NCBI GenBank assembly: GCA_963664825.1
Contig: OY761614.1
Location: 2,784,001-2,848,000 of the forward strand
From: an uncultured Holophaga sp.
GTDB lineage: Bacteria; Acidobacteriota; Holophagae; Holophagales; Holophagaceae
Direction: 5' to 3'
DNA length: 64,000 nucleotides
In this document: positions 6,051 through 14,225 of the stretch, in pieces
Numbering within the stretch: position 1 is the first letter of the stretch
Layout of the letters: each line of letters opens with the position of its first letter
Translations under genes and position numbers: made by a program
The notes under the pieces: model-generated
The model's database searches: none
Seen by the model: only the letters and a program-made list of their open reading frames with translations
Told to the model about the DNA's origin: nothing

Positions 6051-6099
6051 TGGAGCCAACTATAGGATTCGAACCTACGACCTTCTGATTACGAATCAG
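6051..6099 (-). repeat. Attachment site: 49-bp duplicate of the tRNA-Thr 3' end
   Basis: 48/49 identical to 13963-14011; the single difference is T6084 vs G13996. Confidence 0.95.
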
Positions 6100-6187
6100 A
6101 AAGTCATGTTTCAATCATAATTGATAAAAGTTGAAAGTGTTGATACTGAAGATGTTATTTCGTTCAATATCGCAACTGTGTTCACCT

Positions 6188-6245
6188 TGGAACCGGTGGT
6201 TCCACCATGAAAGTGGAACCAGAGTAGAATTCAAAGTGGAACCAG
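6188..6245. promoter_or_regulatory. Cluster of (AAA)GTGGAACCA motifs, likely integrase arm-type sites
   Basis: AAAGTGGAACCAG at 6210-6222 and 6233-6245, an inverted copy TGGTTCCAC at 6197-6205, and the same motif at the other end of the element (13896-13918). Confidence 0.6.
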
Positions 6246-6260
6246 GAGGCTGGAGGGGGC

Positions 6261-7562
6261 ATGAGAAAGTCCGACCAAGAACTGACCACGACCATCTGCG
6301 AACGGACCAAGGCGACGGCCAAAAAACAATCCCTCTGGGATTCGAAAACCACCGGTCTTTGCCTGGTCATCACACCGATGAGGGAAGAGAAACGGGGCGG
6401 GAAGACCGTGACCATCGGCGGGGCCAAGACGTGGTATTTCGTGGCGCGCCGTGCTGATAAGCAGCTCTGGGTGAGGATTGGGGGCTTTGTCCCGAGGGGT
6501 GAGGGCTGGACGCTGGCGAGAGCCAGAACAGAAGCGGATCGCCTGCGCCTCATCCATGACCAGGGGCATGACGTGAAGGCGGCGAAGGCGAAGGAACGCA
6601 CACTTCCCACGGTGGCCAAGCTTGTTGAGGAATATAAAGAGGAGCTGCTTGGCAAGCTCAAGCCCAAGTCCCAGAAATGCGCAGAGGGATACCTGACACG
6701 CGAAATCCTGTCTCGCTTCAAGAATCGGTTGGTGGCTGAAATCGGCGTGGCAGACCTTCAGAAGATGCATGATGAGATTGCCGGGGCAGGGAAGCCATAC
6801 GCCGCCAATCGTGTGATAGCCGCTATGAGCAGGCTCTTGAACGTCGCGGAGAAGAAGGGTTGGCGTTCGATGGGGACGAACCCCACGACGCACGTCGAAC
6901 GAAGTCCTGAAACGGCGAGAAAGACGGTTCTTGATGTTGAGGGCTACGCTGCCACGGAGGTGGCCCTGGTGAAGCTTTGTGCCAAACCAGGGAAGCTTGA
7001 AGGACGCCGCCCATTCCGTCCCGCCGCCGCTGATGCGATTCGCTTCCTTGCCCTGACAGGGCTACGGCTGAATGAAGCTCTGCACCTGACATGGGCCGAT
7101 GTGGATCTGGTGAAGGGTTTCATGGTCATCCGTGACCACAAGACGGTCAAACAGCATGGGGAACGAACCCTTCCGCTCAACTCTCACGCCCTGGCCATCG
7201 TGAAGGCGCGAGAGGGGAAGAGCGTTAGCCCTTACATCTTCTGGGGCAAGCCCAGCGCCAAACAGGTGTTCAAGCCCTTCGTGGGGCTCCAACATGCCTG
7301 GGAACGTGTTCGAGAAGAGGCGAAGCTAGGCGATCTTCGGCTTCACGACTTCCGCAGGAGCTTCAACAGCGTGGCCGCAGAGCTGGGATACCCCGCCGCT
7401 GTGTTTGATACCCTTCTGGGCCATGCTCTGCCTGGAGTCCAGCAGGTCTACACCCGCTTGAATGTGGCTGGCATCCTCGCCACTGCCTCTCAGGACGTGG
7501 GCGACTGGATCAAGGCCGCGATGGATGGGCAGGCGCCGAAGCTGGGAGAGAAGCGGGTCTGA
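6261..7562 (+). CDS. int: Tyrosine recombinase / phage integrase (P4-like, with N-terminal arm-binding domain)
   Basis: Catalytic set R (LTGLRLNE), K (DHKT), HxxR (HDFRR), H (LLGH) and Y (QVY); N-terminal WDSKTTGL...GAKTW arm-binding-type segment; adjacent to att. Confidence 0.95.
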   Translation: MRKSDQELTTTICERTKATAKKQSLWDSKTTGLCLVITPMREEKRGGKTVTIGGAKTWYFVARRADKQLWVRIGGFVPRGEGWTLARARTEADRLRLIHDQGHDVKAAKAKERTLPTVAKLVEEYKEELLGKLKPKSQKCAEGYLTREILSRFKNRLVAEIGVADLQKMHDEIAGAGKPYAANRVIAAMSRLLNVAEKKGWRSMGTNPTTHVERSPETARKTVLDVEGYAATEVALVKLCAKPGKLEGRRPFRPAAADAIRFLALTGLRLNEALHLTWADVDLVKGFMVIRDHKTVKQHGERTLPLNSHALAIVKAREGKSVSPYIFWGKPSAKQVFKPFVGLQHAWERVREEAKLGDLRLHDFRRSFNSVAAELGYPAAVFDTLLGHALPGVQQVYTRLNVAGILATASQDVGDWIKAAMDGQAPKLGEKRV

Positions 7563-8359: not shown

Positions 8360-8584
8360 ATGAAACCTCTCACCCCCAACATCCCGGCCCTGCCGACCCC
8401 GCAGGACTACCTGACCAGTCGTGAACTGGGCCTTCAATACCGCATGTCCTGAGCCTACCTGAGCATGATGAGGTGCCGTGGCGAAGGCCCCCGCTTCATG
8501 CGTCTTGGAGTGCGGAAGGTGCTCTACCTCCGTGCGGATGTGGAAGCCTGGATCCAGGCCCACGCGGTCGAAACGGCGAGCTAG
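8360..8584 (+). pseudogene. xis: Excisionase / AlpA-HTH_17-type protein interrupted by an in-frame TGA (8450-8452)
   Basis: My translation (absent from the ORF track): MKPLTPNIPALPTPQDYLTSRELGLQYRMS*AYLSMMRCRGEGPRFMRLGVRKVLYLRADVEAWIQAHAVETAS*; GGAAGGA RBS upstream. Confidence 0.8.
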
Positions 8585-8597
8585 GGGGATCACGACA

Positions 8598-9023
8598 ATG
8601 ACGACCACGAATAGCAAGACCACGCCGAAGGCCTGCCCGGAATTGAACACCATCACCCAAGGGGCCAGAAAGGGACTGCCCCTCTCCCGTCCTTGGGATG
8701 GGATCGGGATCAATACCTTCAGCCGAACCCATAGGAAGGTTCCAGCGCCTCAGACCTGCATCATTCCCGAACTCTGGGAAGCCGGAGAGGAACACTCGGT
8801 GATCTTGGCAGGTGACCGCGGTTCCCTTCCAGGGTGGCTCTTCGTCCCTGGTGACACGCTGCTTGACGGCTCTCCCGCCGTGCTTCTACTCCCGCGCCGA
8901 GCGACCCGAGCAACCCAGCGTGAAGCCCTCTTTGCGATCCGAGATTTCTACCACGCTCAGAACCTCATGGAGCGAAGACGCCAGAAAGCGGAACTGCTCG
9001 ACGTTGAAGTTGACCCGGGCTGA
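8598..9023 (+). CDS. Hypothetical element protein
   Basis: ATG 8598 with AGGGGG upstream, directly after xis; 141 aa. Confidence 0.55.
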   Translation: MTTTNSKTTPKACPELNTITQGARKGLPLSRPWDGIGINTFSRTHRKVPAPQTCIIPELWEAGEEHSVILAGDRGSLPGWLFVPGDTLLDGSPAVLLLPRRATRATQREALFAIRDFYHAQNLMERRRQKAELLDVEVDPG

Positions 9024-9072
9024 GAAGCACACGCATTCAATCGAAATCAATCATCCAATCGGAGAGATACCA

Positions 9073-9369
9073 ATGAAGACCATCACCGCTTACCGCTGCG
9101 AACACTGTGCCCCTGGACACGGCAGGCCCTATGCCTCCGCAAGCTCCTGCAAGGCCCATGAGGCCCGGTGTCATGACAACCCGGCCTCCCACTCCTGCGC
9201 TACCTGCCGGTTTAAGGCACAGCGTGATGTCGGTGCCCCGGCCGCATTCCAAAAGGAATACCCGGGCGCGACGACGCTGGAATACTTCTGCCAGGCCAAG
9301 AAGCCCGGAAAGTGCCTCACCACGCTTTGCCCGTCCTGGAAGCTGCGAGTGGATGAGGTCTCGGAATGA
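9073..9369 (+). CDS. Small Cys/His-rich (zinc-finger-like) phage-type protein
   Basis: YRCEHC...SCKAHEARCHDNP...SCATC; GGAG RBS; ATGA overlap with the next gene. Confidence 0.65.
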   Translation: MKTITAYRCEHCAPGHGRPYASASSCKAHEARCHDNPASHSCATCRFKAQRDVGAPAAFQKEYPGATTLEYFCQAKKPGKCLTTLCPSWKLRVDEVSE

Positions 9370-10310
9370 GGGACCTTCCAATCAGTTCAATCCGCATGGA
9401 TGGAGGCACTCAAACCCGCGCCGCCTTGGATTCAACGACCTGTGCTGAATACGCCGATGCGATGAAGGCCGGGGCCATCTTCCCGCCCGTCACCGTGTTC
9501 CATGACGGCACCGATTACTGGCTTGCCGACGGCTTCCATCGTGTGGAAGGGGCCCGCCTAGCAGGGCTCCAGGACATCCCCGCCGAGATCCGGCAGGGAA
9601 CCCAGCGCGATGCCCGTCTCTTCGCCGTGGGGGCCAATCAGACCCATGGCTTGCGCCGGACCAATGCCGACAAGCGCCGCGCCGCCTCCGCCCTCCTCGA
9701 TGACCCCGAGTGGAGCCAATGGTCAGACCGGGAGATTGCCCGCCGATGCGGAGTCTCCAATCAATTTGTCTCAAACATGCGATCCGAGCGGGTGTCAACC
9801 GTTGACACCCCGAGGGTGTCATCCAATGACACTCCCGAGGTGGCCACGGTTGAAGCCTGGATCCCTGCCCCCAACTTTGGGGCGCATGGAAAGTGCGCGG
9901 TGGATGGGGTGCGATGGGACGCCTTCATCATGCCCTCAGAATCTTTCGAGTCATCGTCCCGTAGGAATGTGGATGGAAACGACTACCTGTATGTCGTGGT
10001 GACGAAGATTGCCCCCAGCGGAGCAGGTGAAGTCATGGGCACGAAGAGGCCGATCCATAGGAACTTCGTCACTCGAGGGCTTAAAGAAGAGTCCTTCCCC
10101 CTCGCGGAGGCTGCATGGGATCAATTCCCCGTGTCCGACGAACCCGATGGTGAGGAATTGACCTTCGAGAAGCGCTGGTCATGGCCTCACCTGGTTTTTG
10201 AAACCCATCGGGATTGGATGGATCAAGAGCGTTGGTGGACGCTACCCCATGACGACCCGGCCTATCTGGACGCAATCAAGGCTCGAACGCTTTCAGGAGC
10301 GCCGGAATGA
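9366..10310 (+). CDS. ParB/Srx N-terminal domain + HTH protein (phage-type ParB-like)
   Basis: GGTQTRA, FPPVTVF, WLADGFHR and ANQTHGLRRT motifs; HTH SDREIARRCGVSNQFVSNMR. Confidence 0.85.
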   Translation: MRDLPISSIRMDGGTQTRAALDSTTCAEYADAMKAGAIFPPVTVFHDGTDYWLADGFHRVEGARLAGLQDIPAEIRQGTQRDARLFAVGANQTHGLRRTNADKRRAASALLDDPEWSQWSDREIARRCGVSNQFVSNMRSERVSTVDTPRVSSNDTPEVATVEAWIPAPNFGAHGKCAVDGVRWDAFIMPSESFESSSRRNVDGNDYLYVVVTKIAPSGAGEVMGTKRPIHRNFVTRGLKEESFPLAEAAWDQFPVSDEPDGEELTFEKRWSWPHLVFETHRDWMDQERWWTLPHDDPAYLDAIKARTLSGAPE

Positions 10311-10519
10311 GCGGATCCAGACTTCTTCTTCAGCCCGCCGTCTGGCCACACCTCGCGCTCAATCCCGAGCCCTTCGGCACCTCCATGGACCCGGATTCCA
10401 TCGAACGCTGGTATCAGGAGATCCTGCACATGGAGCCCGAACCCGCCCCCTGTCACCTCCCGAAGCCGCAACCCGTTCGCCGCTCGGGAGGTGGCCACTA
10501 CTTTCAGCGGAGGCGGTGA
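10307..10519 (+). CDS. Small hypothetical protein
   Basis: Overlaps both neighbours (ATGA and TGATG), consistent with translational coupling. Confidence 0.5.
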   Translation: MSGSRLLLQPAVWPHLALNPEPFGTSMDPDSIERWYQEILHMEPEPAPCHLPKPQPVRRSGGGHYFQRRR

Positions 10520-11598
10520 TGGCGAGACGACCTAGCTTCCAGTTTTACCCTGGCGATTACGCAGCCAATACCAACTTGCGCCGCTGCACCCATGAGGAGA
10601 AGGGGGTCAACATGGACTTCCTTTGTCTCGCACATGACAGCGATGAATACGGGATTGTGCGCTGGCCCTTGAAGGAACTGGCCCAGGCCATCGGCTGCAA
10701 GGCATCAATCCTTGTCGCTCTCGTGAACAAGAACGTCATCAAGGGAGCCGACGAAGGGACGATGTGTGATGTCTTCGTGTTCACCCCTTGCCATGCGGGG
10801 CAGCGTGGGCTTCCTGTGGAGCTGATACCAGAGCAGCCGGGACCACTCTGGTATTCCAGTCGCATGGTGCGAGACGAATACGTGAGGCAGAACCGAGGGA
10901 AGGCCAGCCGGTTTATCAGTGAAGGTGGACAACCCCCCGATGACTCACCCAACCCGTCACCAATGCCCCCACCAATGCCCCCCTTTGGAGACGGCTCTTC
11001 ATCTTCATCTTCATCTTCATCTTCATCTTTTAATCCTTTGCTTCGCTCGGATTCTGCCCCCAGCCAGGGAGGGGAAAATCATGGGTCGAACCCCGATCCC
11101 GTGCTCCTGGCTCTTCTCTGGTTTGCGAAGGTGGCAGACGCCCGCCGTCAAGTTGAGAGCCTGGACCGTTCCAAAGTGGTCCAGGCCGCATTCGCCCTTG
11201 CGGATCGCGGGGATGAGGTATGGCCTGAAGTGTTCTTGAACTCAGTCACAGTGACACTTCCCGGTAATACCGCCGTTGAAATTACAGCGCGCTACCAGAA
11301 GGCCGTAGCCGGTGAACAGGTCGCCATTCTCGAACAGGCTGAAGATGCCCTTGCGGAAGTGAAGACCATCATTGGTTGTGCCGAACTCTCGTTATCGGTT
11401 GCGTTCAATCGGGTGGGACTCGGAAGCGACTGGAAGCAGGTTCGAACCGCCGACATCGTGAAGGCTTGGCCCCAGGCCACGAAGGCTTCGTTCATCGCCG
11501 CCAATGGCGAGGAAGCCTATACCGCGCTCTTGCAGGGCAGGCTTGGCCTTGAAGCCGCATTGGGCCTGTTCCGGCCCGGACTCGTGAAGGAGAACTAG
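10519..11598 (+). CDS. Phage-type replication initiator (DUF1376/YdaU-like N-terminus)
   Basis: MARRPSFQFYPGDY...LRRCTHEEKG...SDEYG, WYSSRMVRDE, then a Pro-rich/poly-Ser linker; GGAGG RBS. Confidence 0.75.
   Translation: MARRPSFQFYPGDYAANTNLRRCTHEEKGVNMDFLCLAHDSDEYGIVRWPLKELAQAIGCKASILVALVNKNVIKGADEGTMCDVFVFTPCHAGQRGLPVELIPEQPGPLWYSSRMVRDEYVRQNRGKASRFISEGGQPPDDSPNPSPMPPPMPPFGDGSSSSSSSSSSSFNPLLRSDSAPSQGGENHGSNPDPVLLALLWFAKVADARRQVESLDRSKVVQAAFALADRGDEVWPEVFLNSVTVTLPGNTAVEITARYQKAVAGEQVAILEQAEDALAEVKTIIGCAELSLSVAFNRVGLGSDWKQVRTADIVKAWPQATKASFIAANGEEAYTALLQGRLGLEAALGLFRPGLVKEN
10945..11029 (+). repeat. Iteron-like 12-nt repeats plus a (TCTTCA)5 tract inside the replication gene (candidate origin)
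   Basis: TCACCCAACCCG/TCACCAATGCCC/CCACCAATGCCC, then TCTTCA x5 at 10996-11025. Confidence 0.5.
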
Positions 11599-11899: not shown

Positions 11900-12148
11900 A
11901 TGAGCCGCCGCGCCTGGGCCTTCGCATCCACCACACCGCCGCCCCGCTTCGTCCTGGTGCCCTCGTTTAATGACGGGACACCAGAGGCACAGGCAGAACT
12001 TAGCGCCTTCCTGGAGGCTCACCAGGGAGCCCAGGTGCTGGTTTGCCGAAGGGTGGACGGGCGCATCAATCGAGAAAAGAGGAACCCATGGCGTCACTGC
12101 CCGGAGGGATACGGGTTTAGGGCTTGCATCATGTGTGACAATCTCTGA
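11900..12148 (+). CDS. Hypothetical protein
   Basis: In-operon position; C-terminal Cys pattern; no recognised family. Confidence 0.4.
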   Translation: MSRRAWAFASTTPPPRFVLVPSFNDGTPEAQAELSAFLEAHQGAQVLVCRRVDGRINREKRNPWRHCPEGYGFRACIMCDNL

Positions 12149-12185
12149 TAGCCAACCTGCCTAACATGGATCTGGAGGAGCATCC

Positions 12186-12635
12186 GTGACCGCCCCCAAG
12201 TATCAAGTGCAAGACGTTGCTAAGTATTTCCTCGCTTTGGTTGATCGTGAGGTGGACGCAATCGACCACCTCAAGCTTCAGAAACTGTGCTATTACGCCC
12301 AAGGCTTTCACCTTGCCTTGACTGATGCTCCTCTTTTCCCAGAGGCCATCGAGGCTTGGCCTCATGGTCCCGTGTGCCCCGATCTCTATCATCAATTCAA
12401 AGAATATGGGCGGGGGCCAATCCCGGAGGATCCTGATTTTGACACGTCTCTCTTTGATGACACCGCTAAGTCAATCATCGAGGAGGTTTACGATGTGTAT
12501 GGGCAGTACACCGGGTGGAAGCTCCGGAACATCACCCACGCAGAGCCTACCTGGAAGTCTGCAATTGCTCGGGATAACAAAACAATTACCTTCGAAGAGA
12601 TGGCGACATTTTTTAAGACCCAAATTGAAGCGTAA
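12186..12635 (+). CDS. Panacea-domain antitoxin (SocA/DUF4065/GepA family)
   Basis: VAKYF...HLKLQKLCYYAQG...LFPEAIEAWPHGPV...L.N.TH.E.W signature; GGAGGAG RBS. Confidence 0.9.
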   Translation: MTAPKYQVQDVAKYFLALVDREVDAIDHLKLQKLCYYAQGFHLALTDAPLFPEAIEAWPHGPVCPDLYHQFKEYGRGPIPEDPDFDTSLFDDTAKSIIEEVYDVYGQYTGWKLRNITHAEPTWKSAIARDNKTITFEEMATFFKTQIEA

Positions 12636-13042
12636 TGAACCAAATTAAGCGCCCCAAATCCAACGACGGTCAACGGATCAAAAGCCCTACCATAGGAGTC
12701 TCATCGGACGATCAAAAGCCTGCGTTTTCTCTTGAGCACATGGTCTCGGGTCGGTGCCTCAGAGACTGTATAAAAGACGAAAAAGCCGCTTTTGCAATGG
12801 CCCTTCTGGAAAGAAGTTCAAGCACATGGAAGGAGTTGCGCATGGCACCCCGTCACGGGTTGGGGTACGAGCGCATTGAGAAAAATGCAATAAAGTGTGG
12901 GATCCCCTCGGTGGTCCCAGACGACACAGACCTCATCGCCTTTCGTTTTGCAGGGAACGCGCCGATGGTCGGCTATAGGAAAGAACGGACGTTTTTCATT
13001 CTATGGCTGGACCGTGACTTTACGCTCTACGACCACGAATAG
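12635..13042 (+). CDS. Putative cognate toxin (RelE-like / MAG6450-like nuclease)
   Basis: TAATG overlap with the antitoxin; C-terminal FRF.G...MVGYR...FFILWLDRDFTLYDH pattern. Confidence 0.65.
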   Translation: MNQIKRPKSNDGQRIKSPTIGVSSDDQKPAFSLEHMVSGRCLRDCIKDEKAAFAMALLERSSSTWKELRMAPRHGLGYERIEKNAIKCGIPSVVPDDTDLIAFRFAGNAPMVGYRKERTFFILWLDRDFTLYDHE

Positions 13043-13278
13043 GAAGTGATGGGGGCGGATGAAATTCCGGTCACCAATAGGCAGAGGCCCCCAGTGATGG
13101 GGGCTTTGTCGTGCTGGGAGTTCTCCCCAAATTCGGAAGAAACCTTGCCCCTGGAACTTCTGCTCATTTTTGAGAAAAAGCCCATGCGCGCGCGGGGACG
13201 GCAAAGGACGGATAATCCGGCCTTTGAACCCGCACCGCCGTGGTGTTCCCAAATGTGGGATATTCCCACATTTGATCC

Positions 13279-13758
13279 GTGAGCCCCCTCGCCTATGCGT
13301 TCTCCCGGCAGGCGGATCGTCGGAATACCACCGATGCCGACATCATGCGGGCGGTGGGGGTCATCGATAACCGGAAGAGCCGGACGGACAACCTGAAGCA
13401 CGGCCAAGAAACCCCCGATACGCCATGTGGCGTATCGGGAAACCCCGCACCACCATTGGATCTACAAAACCAGGCATCGGCCAAAAAACCCCGCTCCAGC
13501 TCCCAGACCGCCAAGATTATCGGGGTATCCGAGCGCAAGGTGGAGCGGGTTCGGACAATCGCGGATCGTGCGCTATTTGAAGCCCTTCGCCCGCGCGCGC
13601 GGGGATGGTCCGACCTGCATCGCGCCCCGCTACGGATCCTGGTTCCTTCGCCCGCGCGCGCGGGGATGGTCCGTCTGAGCCCACCCGGGAAGCAACCCCA
13701 GGACCCCTTCGCCCGCGCGCGCGGGGATGGTCCCCAGGAGTTCCATCATTTGAAATGA
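13279..13758 (+). CDS. Truncated ParB-like HTH protein whose 3' part runs through the CRISPR repeats
   Basis: YAFSRQADRRNTTDADIMRAV and HTH SQTAKIIGVSERKVERVRTI. Sequence after about 13583 is translated repeat/spacer. No clear RBS, so it may be a remnant. Confidence 0.5.
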   Translation: MSPLAYAFSRQADRRNTTDADIMRAVGVIDNRKSRTDNLKHGQETPDTPCGVSGNPAPPLDLQNQASAKKPRSSSQTAKIIGVSERKVERVRTIADRALFEALRPRARGWSDLHRAPLRILVPSPARAGMVRLSPPGKQPQDPFARARGDGPQEFHHLK

Positions 13759-13856
13759 CGGAACCCCTCCTCTCCCCTCGCCCGCGGGGATAGGGGGATA
13801 ACATCCGTAGTTTGGATGTCATCGGTAGGCCTCTCTCCGCGCGCGGGGATGCTGGG
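13584..13856 (+). CRISPR. Cas-less type I-E-like CRISPR mini-array: 3 conserved + 2 degenerate repeats, 4 spacers
   Basis: CCTTCGCCCGCGCGCGCGGGGATGGTCC(G/C) at 13584-13612, 13645-13673 and 13706-13734 (61-nt period, 32-nt unique spacers); degenerate copies at 13769-13797 (20/29) and 13830-13856. Confidence 0.9.
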
Positions 13857-13925
13857 TGCTCACCGAATCCGGGGACCTCAAAACCAGCCTGCCTGAAAGT
13901 GGAATGGAAGTGGAACCAAAACAAA

Positions 13926-13948
13926 ACAGCCACCCGGGCGGTGGCTGT
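13926..13948 (-). terminator. Element-supplied terminator downstream of the intact tRNA-Thr
   Basis: ACAGCCACC/GGTGGCTGT stem followed on the minus strand by TTTGTTTT. Confidence 0.65.
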
Positions 13949-13962
13949 AAGTGTTGTAATGA

Positions 13963-14038
13963 TGGAGCCAACTATAGGATTCGAACCTACGACCTGCTGA
14001 TTACGAATCAGCTGCTCTACCAACTGAGCTAAGTTGGC
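13963..14038 (-). tRNA. tRNA-Thr (CGT)
   Basis: 76-nt cloverleaf GCCAACTTAGCTCAGTTGGTAGAGCAGCTGATTCGTAATCAGCAGGTCGTAGGTTCGAATCCTATAGTTGGCTCCA; encoded CCA. Confidence 0.97.
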
Positions 14039-14225
14039 CCGGACGAGCCAGTGTGCCAGAAGAGTCACCCGGGCTCAAGGGGTGAGTGATCGGGGCCTCG
14101 AAGGGGGCTCGAGAGGAATGCGCTCTCAGAGAGGGCTCCTTGTGACCTCTCGTCACGAAGTCTATACGTGCCTGTCACGAGGTGGTGCTAGGCTTCGTCC
14201 CATCACCACTTCAATGGGGAGTCCC

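Follow-up and report, generated by a model that had tools for sequence, protein, structure and literature searches.

Palindromic inserts in a leaderless CRISPR-like array on a Holophaga mobile element: a possible case of off-target integration by host Cas1-Cas2

Introduction

In 2018, Nivala, Shipman and Church reportedly described neo-CRISPR arrays that arise by off-target Cas1-Cas2 integration. Published accounts document such integration at repeat-like sites (PMC6698737; 10.1101/148544) and give the type I-E integration geometry as a 28-nt repeat with G-starting 33-nt inserts (PMC7054753). Virus-borne mini-arrays carry repeats identical to those of the host, and most of their spacers hit related viruses (PMC11656645). 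Racrs are solitary, expressed repeats, and RacrIF1 is processed by Cas6 (PMC10651486). Finally, template switching is known to turn imperfect inverted repeats of bacterial noncoding DNA into perfect ones (PMC5941160).

Here, we compare these systems with a CRISPR-like array found in a 64,000-nt stretch of DNA from an uncultured Holophaga sp. (hereafter, the window). The array resembles neo-CRISPR arrays in its leaderless repeat-like site, 28-nt duplication, G-starting 33-nt inserts, host-derived spacer, and leader-end-like bases (PMC6698737; PMC7054753; 10.1101/148544), and a host Cas1-Cas2 of the matching subtype is present. Unlike them, it is natural, lies on an integrative element, shares its motif with an unrelated phage contig, and is backed by older units with palindromic centers. 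Virus-borne mini-arrays likewise have few units and no cas genes and sit on a mobile element in a host of the matching subtype (PMC11656645), but the repeat of the window array differs from that of the host at 6 of 29 positions, and its stem is bulged; of the spacers, S2 alone has a match, which is in the host chromosome, while S1, S3, and S4 are unmatched, also in a sister element. With Racrs, the locus shares repeat mimics on a mobile element and nontargeting flanks (PMC10651486), but it has five repeat-like units in tandem, no promoter that we could find, and repeats that are predicted to misfold. Multi-unit I-E-like arrays with degenerate distal repeats, mobile elements, and a nearby toxin-antitoxin pair recall the Cracr and CreR systems (10.1101/2024.10.29.618823; 10.1101/2023.03.03.530964); however, the window spacers are full length and self-folding rather than short and have no PAM-proximal match of at least 9 nt to cas or toxin promoters. 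Template-switch homogenization offers a neutral route to perfect inverted repeats, but the published account (PMC5941160) concerns the correction of existing arms, and that a whole CRISPR spacer could become a palindrome in this way is an extension that we propose here. Among the matches listed in open-access literature, we found no description of palindromic or hairpin spacers as such. We regard the locus as a variant of orphan or neo-CRISPR arrays and likely a silent by-product.

The element and its host

The array belongs to an 8-kb element that has inserted in tRNA-Thr, and it sits close to the element's right end. The main features of the element, in window coordinates, are as follows.

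6051 to 6099, no strand: left att copy and left element end, a 49-bp repeat of the tRNA-Thr 3' end (98% by blastn to 13963-14011)
6261 to 7562, plus strand: tyrosine integrase (Pfam PF00589, E 1.9e-18; Arm-DNA-bind_3)
9366 to 10310, plus strand: ParB-like protein (phrog_1033, E 3.6e-26), with palindromes inside the gene at 9790-9850
12186 to 13042, plus strand: Panacea/SocA antitoxin (PF13274, E 1.6e-22) and 135-aa partner
13288 to 13572, plus strand: internal fragment of a second ParB-like gene, without N- or C-terminal part, with 80% identity to the 337-aa P0001
13896 to 13948, no strand: probable arm-type sites (AAGTGGAA) and a minus-strand terminator behind the tRNA (from the sequence and a terminator scan)
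13963 to 14038, minus strand: tRNA-Thr(CGT), right att site

The element also encodes several unknown proteins, and no cas gene was recognized within its 8 kb. The 135-aa partner of the Panacea antitoxin has 206 homologues (phrog_8366) and no Pfam or NCBIfam family, and we consider it a candidate for an uncharacterized toxin; what appears to be a terminator-like hairpin lies behind the pair near 13080-13110. The motif AAGTGGAA(CC) is repeated at both element ends (6184-6250 and 13896-13920), probably as integrase arm-type sites. Strong palindromes occur inside both ParB-like genes (9790-9850 and 13414-13439) and are possibly their own parS-like sites; P0001 has a peptide similar to that at the second of these palindromes. 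A short excisionase-like frame at 8362-8571, upstream of 8600, appears by eye to be broken by a stop near 8450. An Rfam search of the window returned tRNAs only.

The host carries a I-E locus in which all eight genes (cas3, cse1, cse2, cas7, cas5, cas6e, cas1, and cas2) are unbroken and in which cas1e and cas2e score above curated cutoffs; its CRISPR array has 109 repeats and 108 spacers. A sister element at tRNA-Ser (C1:2519200-2529500, L057) shares 2.5 kb at 98.5% with window positions 8606-11114. It has a different 3' half in the replication-like gene, followed by what by eye is a terminase-like gene. The array module is absent from this sister element, which has a near-identical ParB, and from three related family elements.

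Repeats and fresh inserts

The array and the repeat-motif copy upstream of it comprise the following units.

13177 to 13204, plus strand: R0, a copy of the repeat motif that lies upstream and is not part of the array; left arm of a long fold-back
13202 to 13226, no strand: hairpin directly behind R0, 11 of 12 pairs, reaching the last 3 to 4 nt of the motif
13250 to 13274, no strand: perfect 11-bp inverted repeat
13584 to 13611, plus strand: R1, 28 nt; its stem is bulged by a G at position 6, and its 14-bp core is a perfect palindrome
13612 to 13644, plus strand: S1, a G-starting 33-nt insert, unstructured
13645 to 13672, plus strand: R2, identical to R1
13673 to 13705, plus strand: S2, a G-starting 33-nt insert matching the host chromosome
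13706 to 13733, plus strand: R3, identical over 28 nt, the next base being C and not the PAM-type G
13734 to 13768, no strand: S3, 35 nt in the 28+33 register, with a palindrome at 13736-13768
13769 to 13796, plus strand: R4, a degenerate repeat whose altered 3' end pairs either with the 5' end of the same repeat or with the R5 start
13797 to 13829, no strand: S4, G-starting and 33 nt if R5 starts at 13830, with a palindrome at 13797-13823
13830 to 13855, plus strand: R5, a degenerate repeat that lacks about 2 nt of the GC run, with no strong hairpin after it

The repeat of R1 to R3 is identical to the host I-E repeat at 23 of 29 positions and differs at the other 6; the motif of the array has the pattern TCGC-N-CGCGCGCGCGGG. 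The 13-mer GCGCGCGCGGGGA has four copies in the 3.47-Mb genome, namely R0 (at 13186), R1, R2, and R3. Directly upstream of R1 stands GAAGC, where the host leader ends in GAAGT, and AAG is the commonest leader-end triplet in viral array flanks (9 of 53, among the matches listed).

S2 matches the host chromosome perfectly over its full 33 nt (C1:1700705-1700737, minus strand, PAM AGG), such that the match, including the initial G of S2, directly follows AG. AGG is listed among the proposed optimal PAMs of Escherichia coli (PMC5904413), which may not be those of this host. The target lies at the junction where an AhpC-family gene ends and a CMD-family gene, seemingly ahpD-like, begins, and it overlaps by 19 nt a perfect 15- to 16-bp inverted repeat right after the ahpC stop codon; an overlap of this kind is found for 0.18% of genome 33-mers. 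S1 has no match in its own genome or, at up to 3 mismatches, in 132 family genomes. These features argue strongly that host Cas1-Cas2 integrated S1 and S2, duplicating 28 nt each time, and that S2 came from the host.

Silence of the array

A live guide that targets its own chromosome perfectly should be lethal, and therefore something silences S2. The ParB-like fragment ends 11 nt upstream of R1 and thus leaves no room for a leader there (the contig of run X6 diverges from the window at 13571), and a promoter scan of 12000-14200 returned no promoter-like site. Because of the G at position 6, R1 to R3 have lost the base-of-stem pair: the predicted probability of the pair between positions 6 and 21 is 0.0 in R1 and R3 versus 0.99 in the host repeat, and the probability of the local stem in context is 0.0 for R1 to R3 versus 0.16 to 0.79 for four host repeats. 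In a predicted long transcript, the 14-bp palindromic cores of R1 to R3 cross-pair instead of forming local stems. We posit that the array is probably silent, yielding little or no crRNA, and that the self-match of S2 is thereby tolerated; the tolerance could also be accounted for by an anti-CRISPR protein or by repression of the cas operon.

Palindromes in S3 and S4

The two palindromes lie where the sequence-only reading had placed them, and its pair counts were correct: S3 pairs at 13 of 15 positions around a 3-nt loop, and S4 pairs at 9 of 10 around a 7-nt loop. Folded as plus-strand RNA, S3 reaches -13.1 kcal/mol (z -4.08; equaled by 0 of 200 shuffles) and S4 reaches -11.0 kcal/mol (z -2.93; equaled by 4 of 200). 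The same reading saw no such symmetry in S1 and S2, and indeed their folds are within chance, with 178 and 121 of 200 shuffles, respectively, being as good.

With a palindrome score defined as matches minus mismatches, S3 scores 11, which is reached by none of the 108 host spacers, by none of 388 distinct viral I-E spacers among the matches listed (maximum 10), and by 17 of 20,000 random genome 34-mers. The score of S4, 7, is reached by 1 of the 108 host spacers, 10 of the 388 viral spacers (among the matches listed), and 402 of 20,000 random genome 30-mers, which puts S4 in the top 2 to 3%. The viral set was taken from the best 80 of 126 viral stretches plus two further loci. The symmetry of S3 is exceptional and that of S4 merely uncommon, and most of the signal comes from S3. 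The earlier judgment that two consecutive palindromic spacers are unlikely to result from random acquisition survives the comparison with host and viral spacers; a rough estimate of the joint chance of an adjacent palindromic pair among four spacers, made post hoc, is about 1e-4.

All three mismatches in S3 and S4 are A.C on the plus strand and G.U on the minus strand, and the minus strand folds better (S3, -21.4; S4, -13.5; 0 of 200 shuffles each). G.U pairs favor the minus strand in S3, S4, and the hairpin of the phage contig L216 described below, and they favor the plus strand in R4 and R5, a split that suits symmetry at the DNA level better than a single RNA strand.

Separately, two viral I-E mini-arrays, L132 and L097, have one strongly palindromic spacer each (scores of 10 and 9); the one in L097 is terminator-like and lies between degenerate repeats.

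Older units and related modules

R3 ends in C, and R1 and R2 end in G. In viral arrays, among the matches listed, the last base of the terminal repeat is off mode in 27 of 42 cases versus 67 of 314 internal repeats, and R3 therefore looks like a terminal copy. Beyond it, the core-to-core spacings of 63 and 59 nt each occur in 2 of 320 viral I-E spacings (among the matches listed). R4 and R5 share their first six letters, keep the canonical stem base, and, if R5 starts at 13830, form with S4 a 28-nt repeat plus a G-starting 33-mer; they may be old true repeats. An equally good alternative alignment of R4 to R3 posits a 6-nt loss in the CG run. The local stem of R4 is predicted to form in context with a probability of 1.0, but its handle is paired.

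Hairpin pairing extends into the 3' end of the repeat at both R0 and R4, and the symmetry axes of S3 and S4, as read from the folds, are 2 nt off those of the flanking repeat pairing. We infer that the older units (R3-S3-R4, R4-S4-R5, and R0 with its hairpin) are long quasi-palindromes. Seven inverted repeats lie within 13202-13948. R0 heads a 70-nt fold-back, behind which comes the perfect 11-bp inverted repeat (13177-13274 in all), and a weak repeat-like GGGAT lies 62 nt past R0's own.

Outside the window, the combination of motif and hairpin is known from two examples. One is a contig of run X8, from another study, which follows window positions 12983-13201, continues through 36 other letters, and returns to 13177 with a 61-nt period. 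Judged by eye, the inserted letters may form a hairpin together with the end of the motif; by depth, only about 20 letters seem to match, and the contig is a hint. In run X5, depth is 156 over 13192-13277 versus 19 to 79 in neighboring pieces, and this piece may be common to several elements; an X5 contig over 13676-13981, the only other contig covering S3 and S4, shows 0 differences.

The other example, the one match of a tandem-motif scan of viral contigs, is an unrelated phage contig (L216/L218) in which the module stands behind terL. Two 28-nt copies have the same noncanonical 19-nt core and the same upstream GAAGC as the window, neither of which was fully specified by the search pattern, and their 28+33 duplication encloses an unstructured G-starting 33-mer. 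After the second copy comes a palindrome and then, 62 nt on, a third copy, whose alignment is marginally better in the inverted than in the direct orientation; it pairs back onto the second, and the unit forms a single 88-nt hairpin (z -5.7). In L216, the 3' handle of the repeat is different, and the hairpin is followed by a run of T and may be no more than a terminator. As to setting, L218:1-4671 (L216:980-1285) shows a tail-less packaging order (HNH, adaptors, terS, and terL) followed by the motif module, and a short palindrome near L216:1150-1165 resembles what we take to be a DnaA box.

In the window, L216, and X8 units alike, the next motif-like copy comes about 61 to 63 nt on. Across the window and L216 loci, the palindrome score after the motif is 4, 4, and 4 for the three copies with a fresh insert and 10, 12, 8, 4, and 12 for the other five copies; as background, a following-palindrome score of at least 8 is found at 8 of 509 genome GCGGGGAY sites.

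Searches for targets and homologues

Searched whole or as halves, S3 and S4 found no target in their own genome or in viral, metagenome, phylum, or family collections. At up to 3 mismatches, S3 was found in 0 of 200 other phylum genomes; its exact sequence was absent from viral contigs, and its degenerate palindrome pattern was absent from metagenomes. By blastn, S3 and S4 had no match in 60 relatives or 132 family genomes, no divergent homologue came to light, and the element, the sister element, and the genome held no second copy. PAM-flanked seed runs, taken in six registers for each insert and searched in the cas locus, the element, the sister element, and the ahpC region, were at best 6 to 7 nt, which is the chance level.

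Searches with the repeats and their surroundings were similarly unproductive. The array region matched phages and plasmids by blastn only at the chance level or through ordinary Streptomyces arrays. The repeat pattern occurred in no viral contig and in nine genome contigs as single matches without array context; these, and five repeat-site matches outside this genome that likewise had no array-like context, seem to be chance matches in coding DNA. None of the 132 family genomes held the tandem-motif pattern or an empty single-copy site. The R0 region was absent from 400 phylum genomes and had chance matches only in plasmids, as did the L216 module in plasmids and phages, and loci of the ParB fragment and of P0001 elsewhere showed no context with the motif.

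A proposed origin

In total, the observations outlined above incline us, if only slightly, toward an explanation in which a palindromic motif of mobile elements, without a leader, serves host Cas1-Cas2 as an integration site and S3 and S4 are inert fold-back DNA, either native or remodeled. The events would begin with an element carrying a GC-rich, host-repeat-like motif with a 14-bp palindromic core and a leader-end-like AAG upstream, as seen at R1. Host Cas1-Cas2 would then very probably have inserted S1 and S2 at this motif, with a 28-nt duplication at each insertion, and drawn S2 from the host chromosome. With leader and promoter absent, the stem bulged, and the repeats cross-pairing, little or no crRNA should result. 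The central hairpins of the older units may be the element's native motif-plus-hairpin module; alternatively, template switches during replication, from one self-complementary repeat to another, may have turned old inserts into symmetric ones. We consider these two origins about equally probable. A template-switch origin would explain the CRISPR-like spacing, the lost starting G, and the pairing into the repeat ends of R0 and R4, but the 2-nt axis offset fits poorly with a single template switch.

In favor of inert fold-back DNA stand the 28+33 geometry, the self-target of S2 beside eight cas genes, the missing leader and promoter, the predicted misfolding of R1 to R3, the palindrome scores behind the motif copies, the pairing into the repeat ends at R0 and R4, the failure of S3 and S4 to match a target in the collections searched, and the L216 module. 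Against it stand the canonical form of R4-S4-R5 if R5 starts at 13830, the axis offset, the possible terminator nature of the L216 hairpin, the small number of outside examples (two), and the lack of an empty site among the genomes searched, as well as the perfect inverted repeat overlapped by the S2 target, which points to biased capture or survival of spacers linked to palindromes.

If this explanation is true, the locus shows, in nature, a CRISPR array arising off-target on a mobile element; its units can be ordered by age, with fresh spacers at one end and old, folded-back units at the other, and the perfect self-spacer that the cell tolerates marks the array as silent. It would also caution against taking the palindromic "spacers" and degenerate repeats of orphan arrays for guides as a matter of course. 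Do mobile elements keep sites that divert adaptation? With this unusual repeat also present in an unrelated phage contig, the question can be tested, and such sites, if real, would be a new anti-CRISPR strategy. In that vein, it is possible, though we hold it unlikely, that unrelated satellite-like elements share an undescribed CRISPR mimic, with a bulged, fully palindromic I-E-like repeat, a leader-end AAG, and hairpin pseudo-spacers set at CRISPR spacing, that works as a decoy. As part of that same reading, the decoy might act as DNA, with host Cas1-Cas2 drawn into a silent array that serves as an anti-adaptation sink, or as RNA, with Cas6e and Cascade tied up by nonpairing guides.

Alternative explanations

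Could S3 and S4 instead be authentic spacers, captured whole from palindromic DNA such as terminators, operators, or origins? The 19-nt overlap between the S2 target and a perfect inverted repeat (seen for 0.18% of 33-mers) would fit, as would the reading of S4 as a G-starting 33-mer and the 3 of 388 viral spacers (among the matches listed) that score 9 to 10. Hairpin-biased uptake is also on record, but for type III-A and not for I-E (PMC8860593). The absence of a protospacer from 200 phylum genomes, 132 family genomes, and the viral and metagenome collections speaks against capture, as do the 35-nt length and initial C of S3 and the lack of palindrome bias in the host's 108 spacers; moreover, capture alone does not give the pairing into the repeat ends at R0 and R4. 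We judge it an unlikely origin. Its variants (capture that favors hairpins, self spacers that are survivable because they fold on themselves or hit palindromes, or aim at fixed palindromes of rival elements) are likewise unlikely when taken jointly. Less probable again is that R3 to R5 are transcribed as a Racr-like decoy, in which Cas6e and Cas7 bind the repeat mimics, the hairpin pseudo-spacers do not pair, and the cell is shielded from S2. This was among the options of the sequence-only reading, and the architecture does speak for it: motif-hairpin-motif units at about 61 to 63 nt recur in the window, L216, and X8, the local stem of R4 is predicted in context with a probability of 1.0, the host I-E locus is intact, and I-E Racrs as well as multi-unit I-E Cracr arrays with aberrant repeats exist (PMC10651486; 10.1101/2024.10.29.618823). 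However, neither leader nor promoter was found at the array, no acr gene was identified, the G.U pairs are split between strands, and the L216 repeat has a different 3' handle. In addition, R1 to R3 are predicted to lack the base-of-stem pair of the Cas6e stem, a pair whose loss abolishes RacrIF1 in type I-F (PMC10651486), and the perfectly self-targeting S2 is tolerated in the same would-be transcript.

The option of DNA sites, also raised by the sequence-only reading, fares unevenly. It says that S3, S4, and the palindromes of 13202-13274 are sites for proteins of the element or a helper phage (ParB-like, recombination, or packaging) and that the CRISPR integration is incidental. The symmetry is indeed of a DNA-level kind, with mismatches that are strand neutral overall; there are seven inverted repeats in 13202-13948, the ParB genes carry palindromes within their own coding sequence, and the L216 module likewise comes last in a block of packaging genes. 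Yet the palindromes are unlike in sequence, in the length of their arms, and in their loops; the hairpins have no sequence in common with one another and only a few letters with the ParB palindromes; neither S3 nor S4 occurs a second time in the element, the sister element, or the genome; and the sister element has a near-identical ParB without the module. We consider protein sites improbable. Far more doubtful is the remaining option, that S3 or S4 represses a cas or toxin promoter as a Cracr- or CreR-like short guide through a partial PAM-proximal match. A toxin-antitoxin pair (the toxin being putative) does lie 540 nt upstream, and I-E Cracr arrays are known (10.1101/2024.10.29.618823), but no full target exists in the collections searched, cas and toxin-antitoxin DNA yielded no match of PAM plus seed, the best seed runs fall short of the 9-bp criterion given in the Cracr paper, and the seeds are locked in the stems of S3 and S4. 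For this host, the idea is nearly refuted. Of the evidence used here, the self-targeting S2, the host I-E locus, and the hairpin-bearing R0 had not figured in the sequence-only reading.

Further candidates were tried and rejected. As a terminator, S3 fails for want of a U-tract on either strand, and its arms have just 5 to 6 letters in common with integrase arm sites. S4 bears a partial likeness to a parS copy, with the arms in the opposite order. For an antisense structured RNA, the G.U bias is inconsistent across the hairpins. Three candidate loci proved to be ordinary CRISPR arrays.
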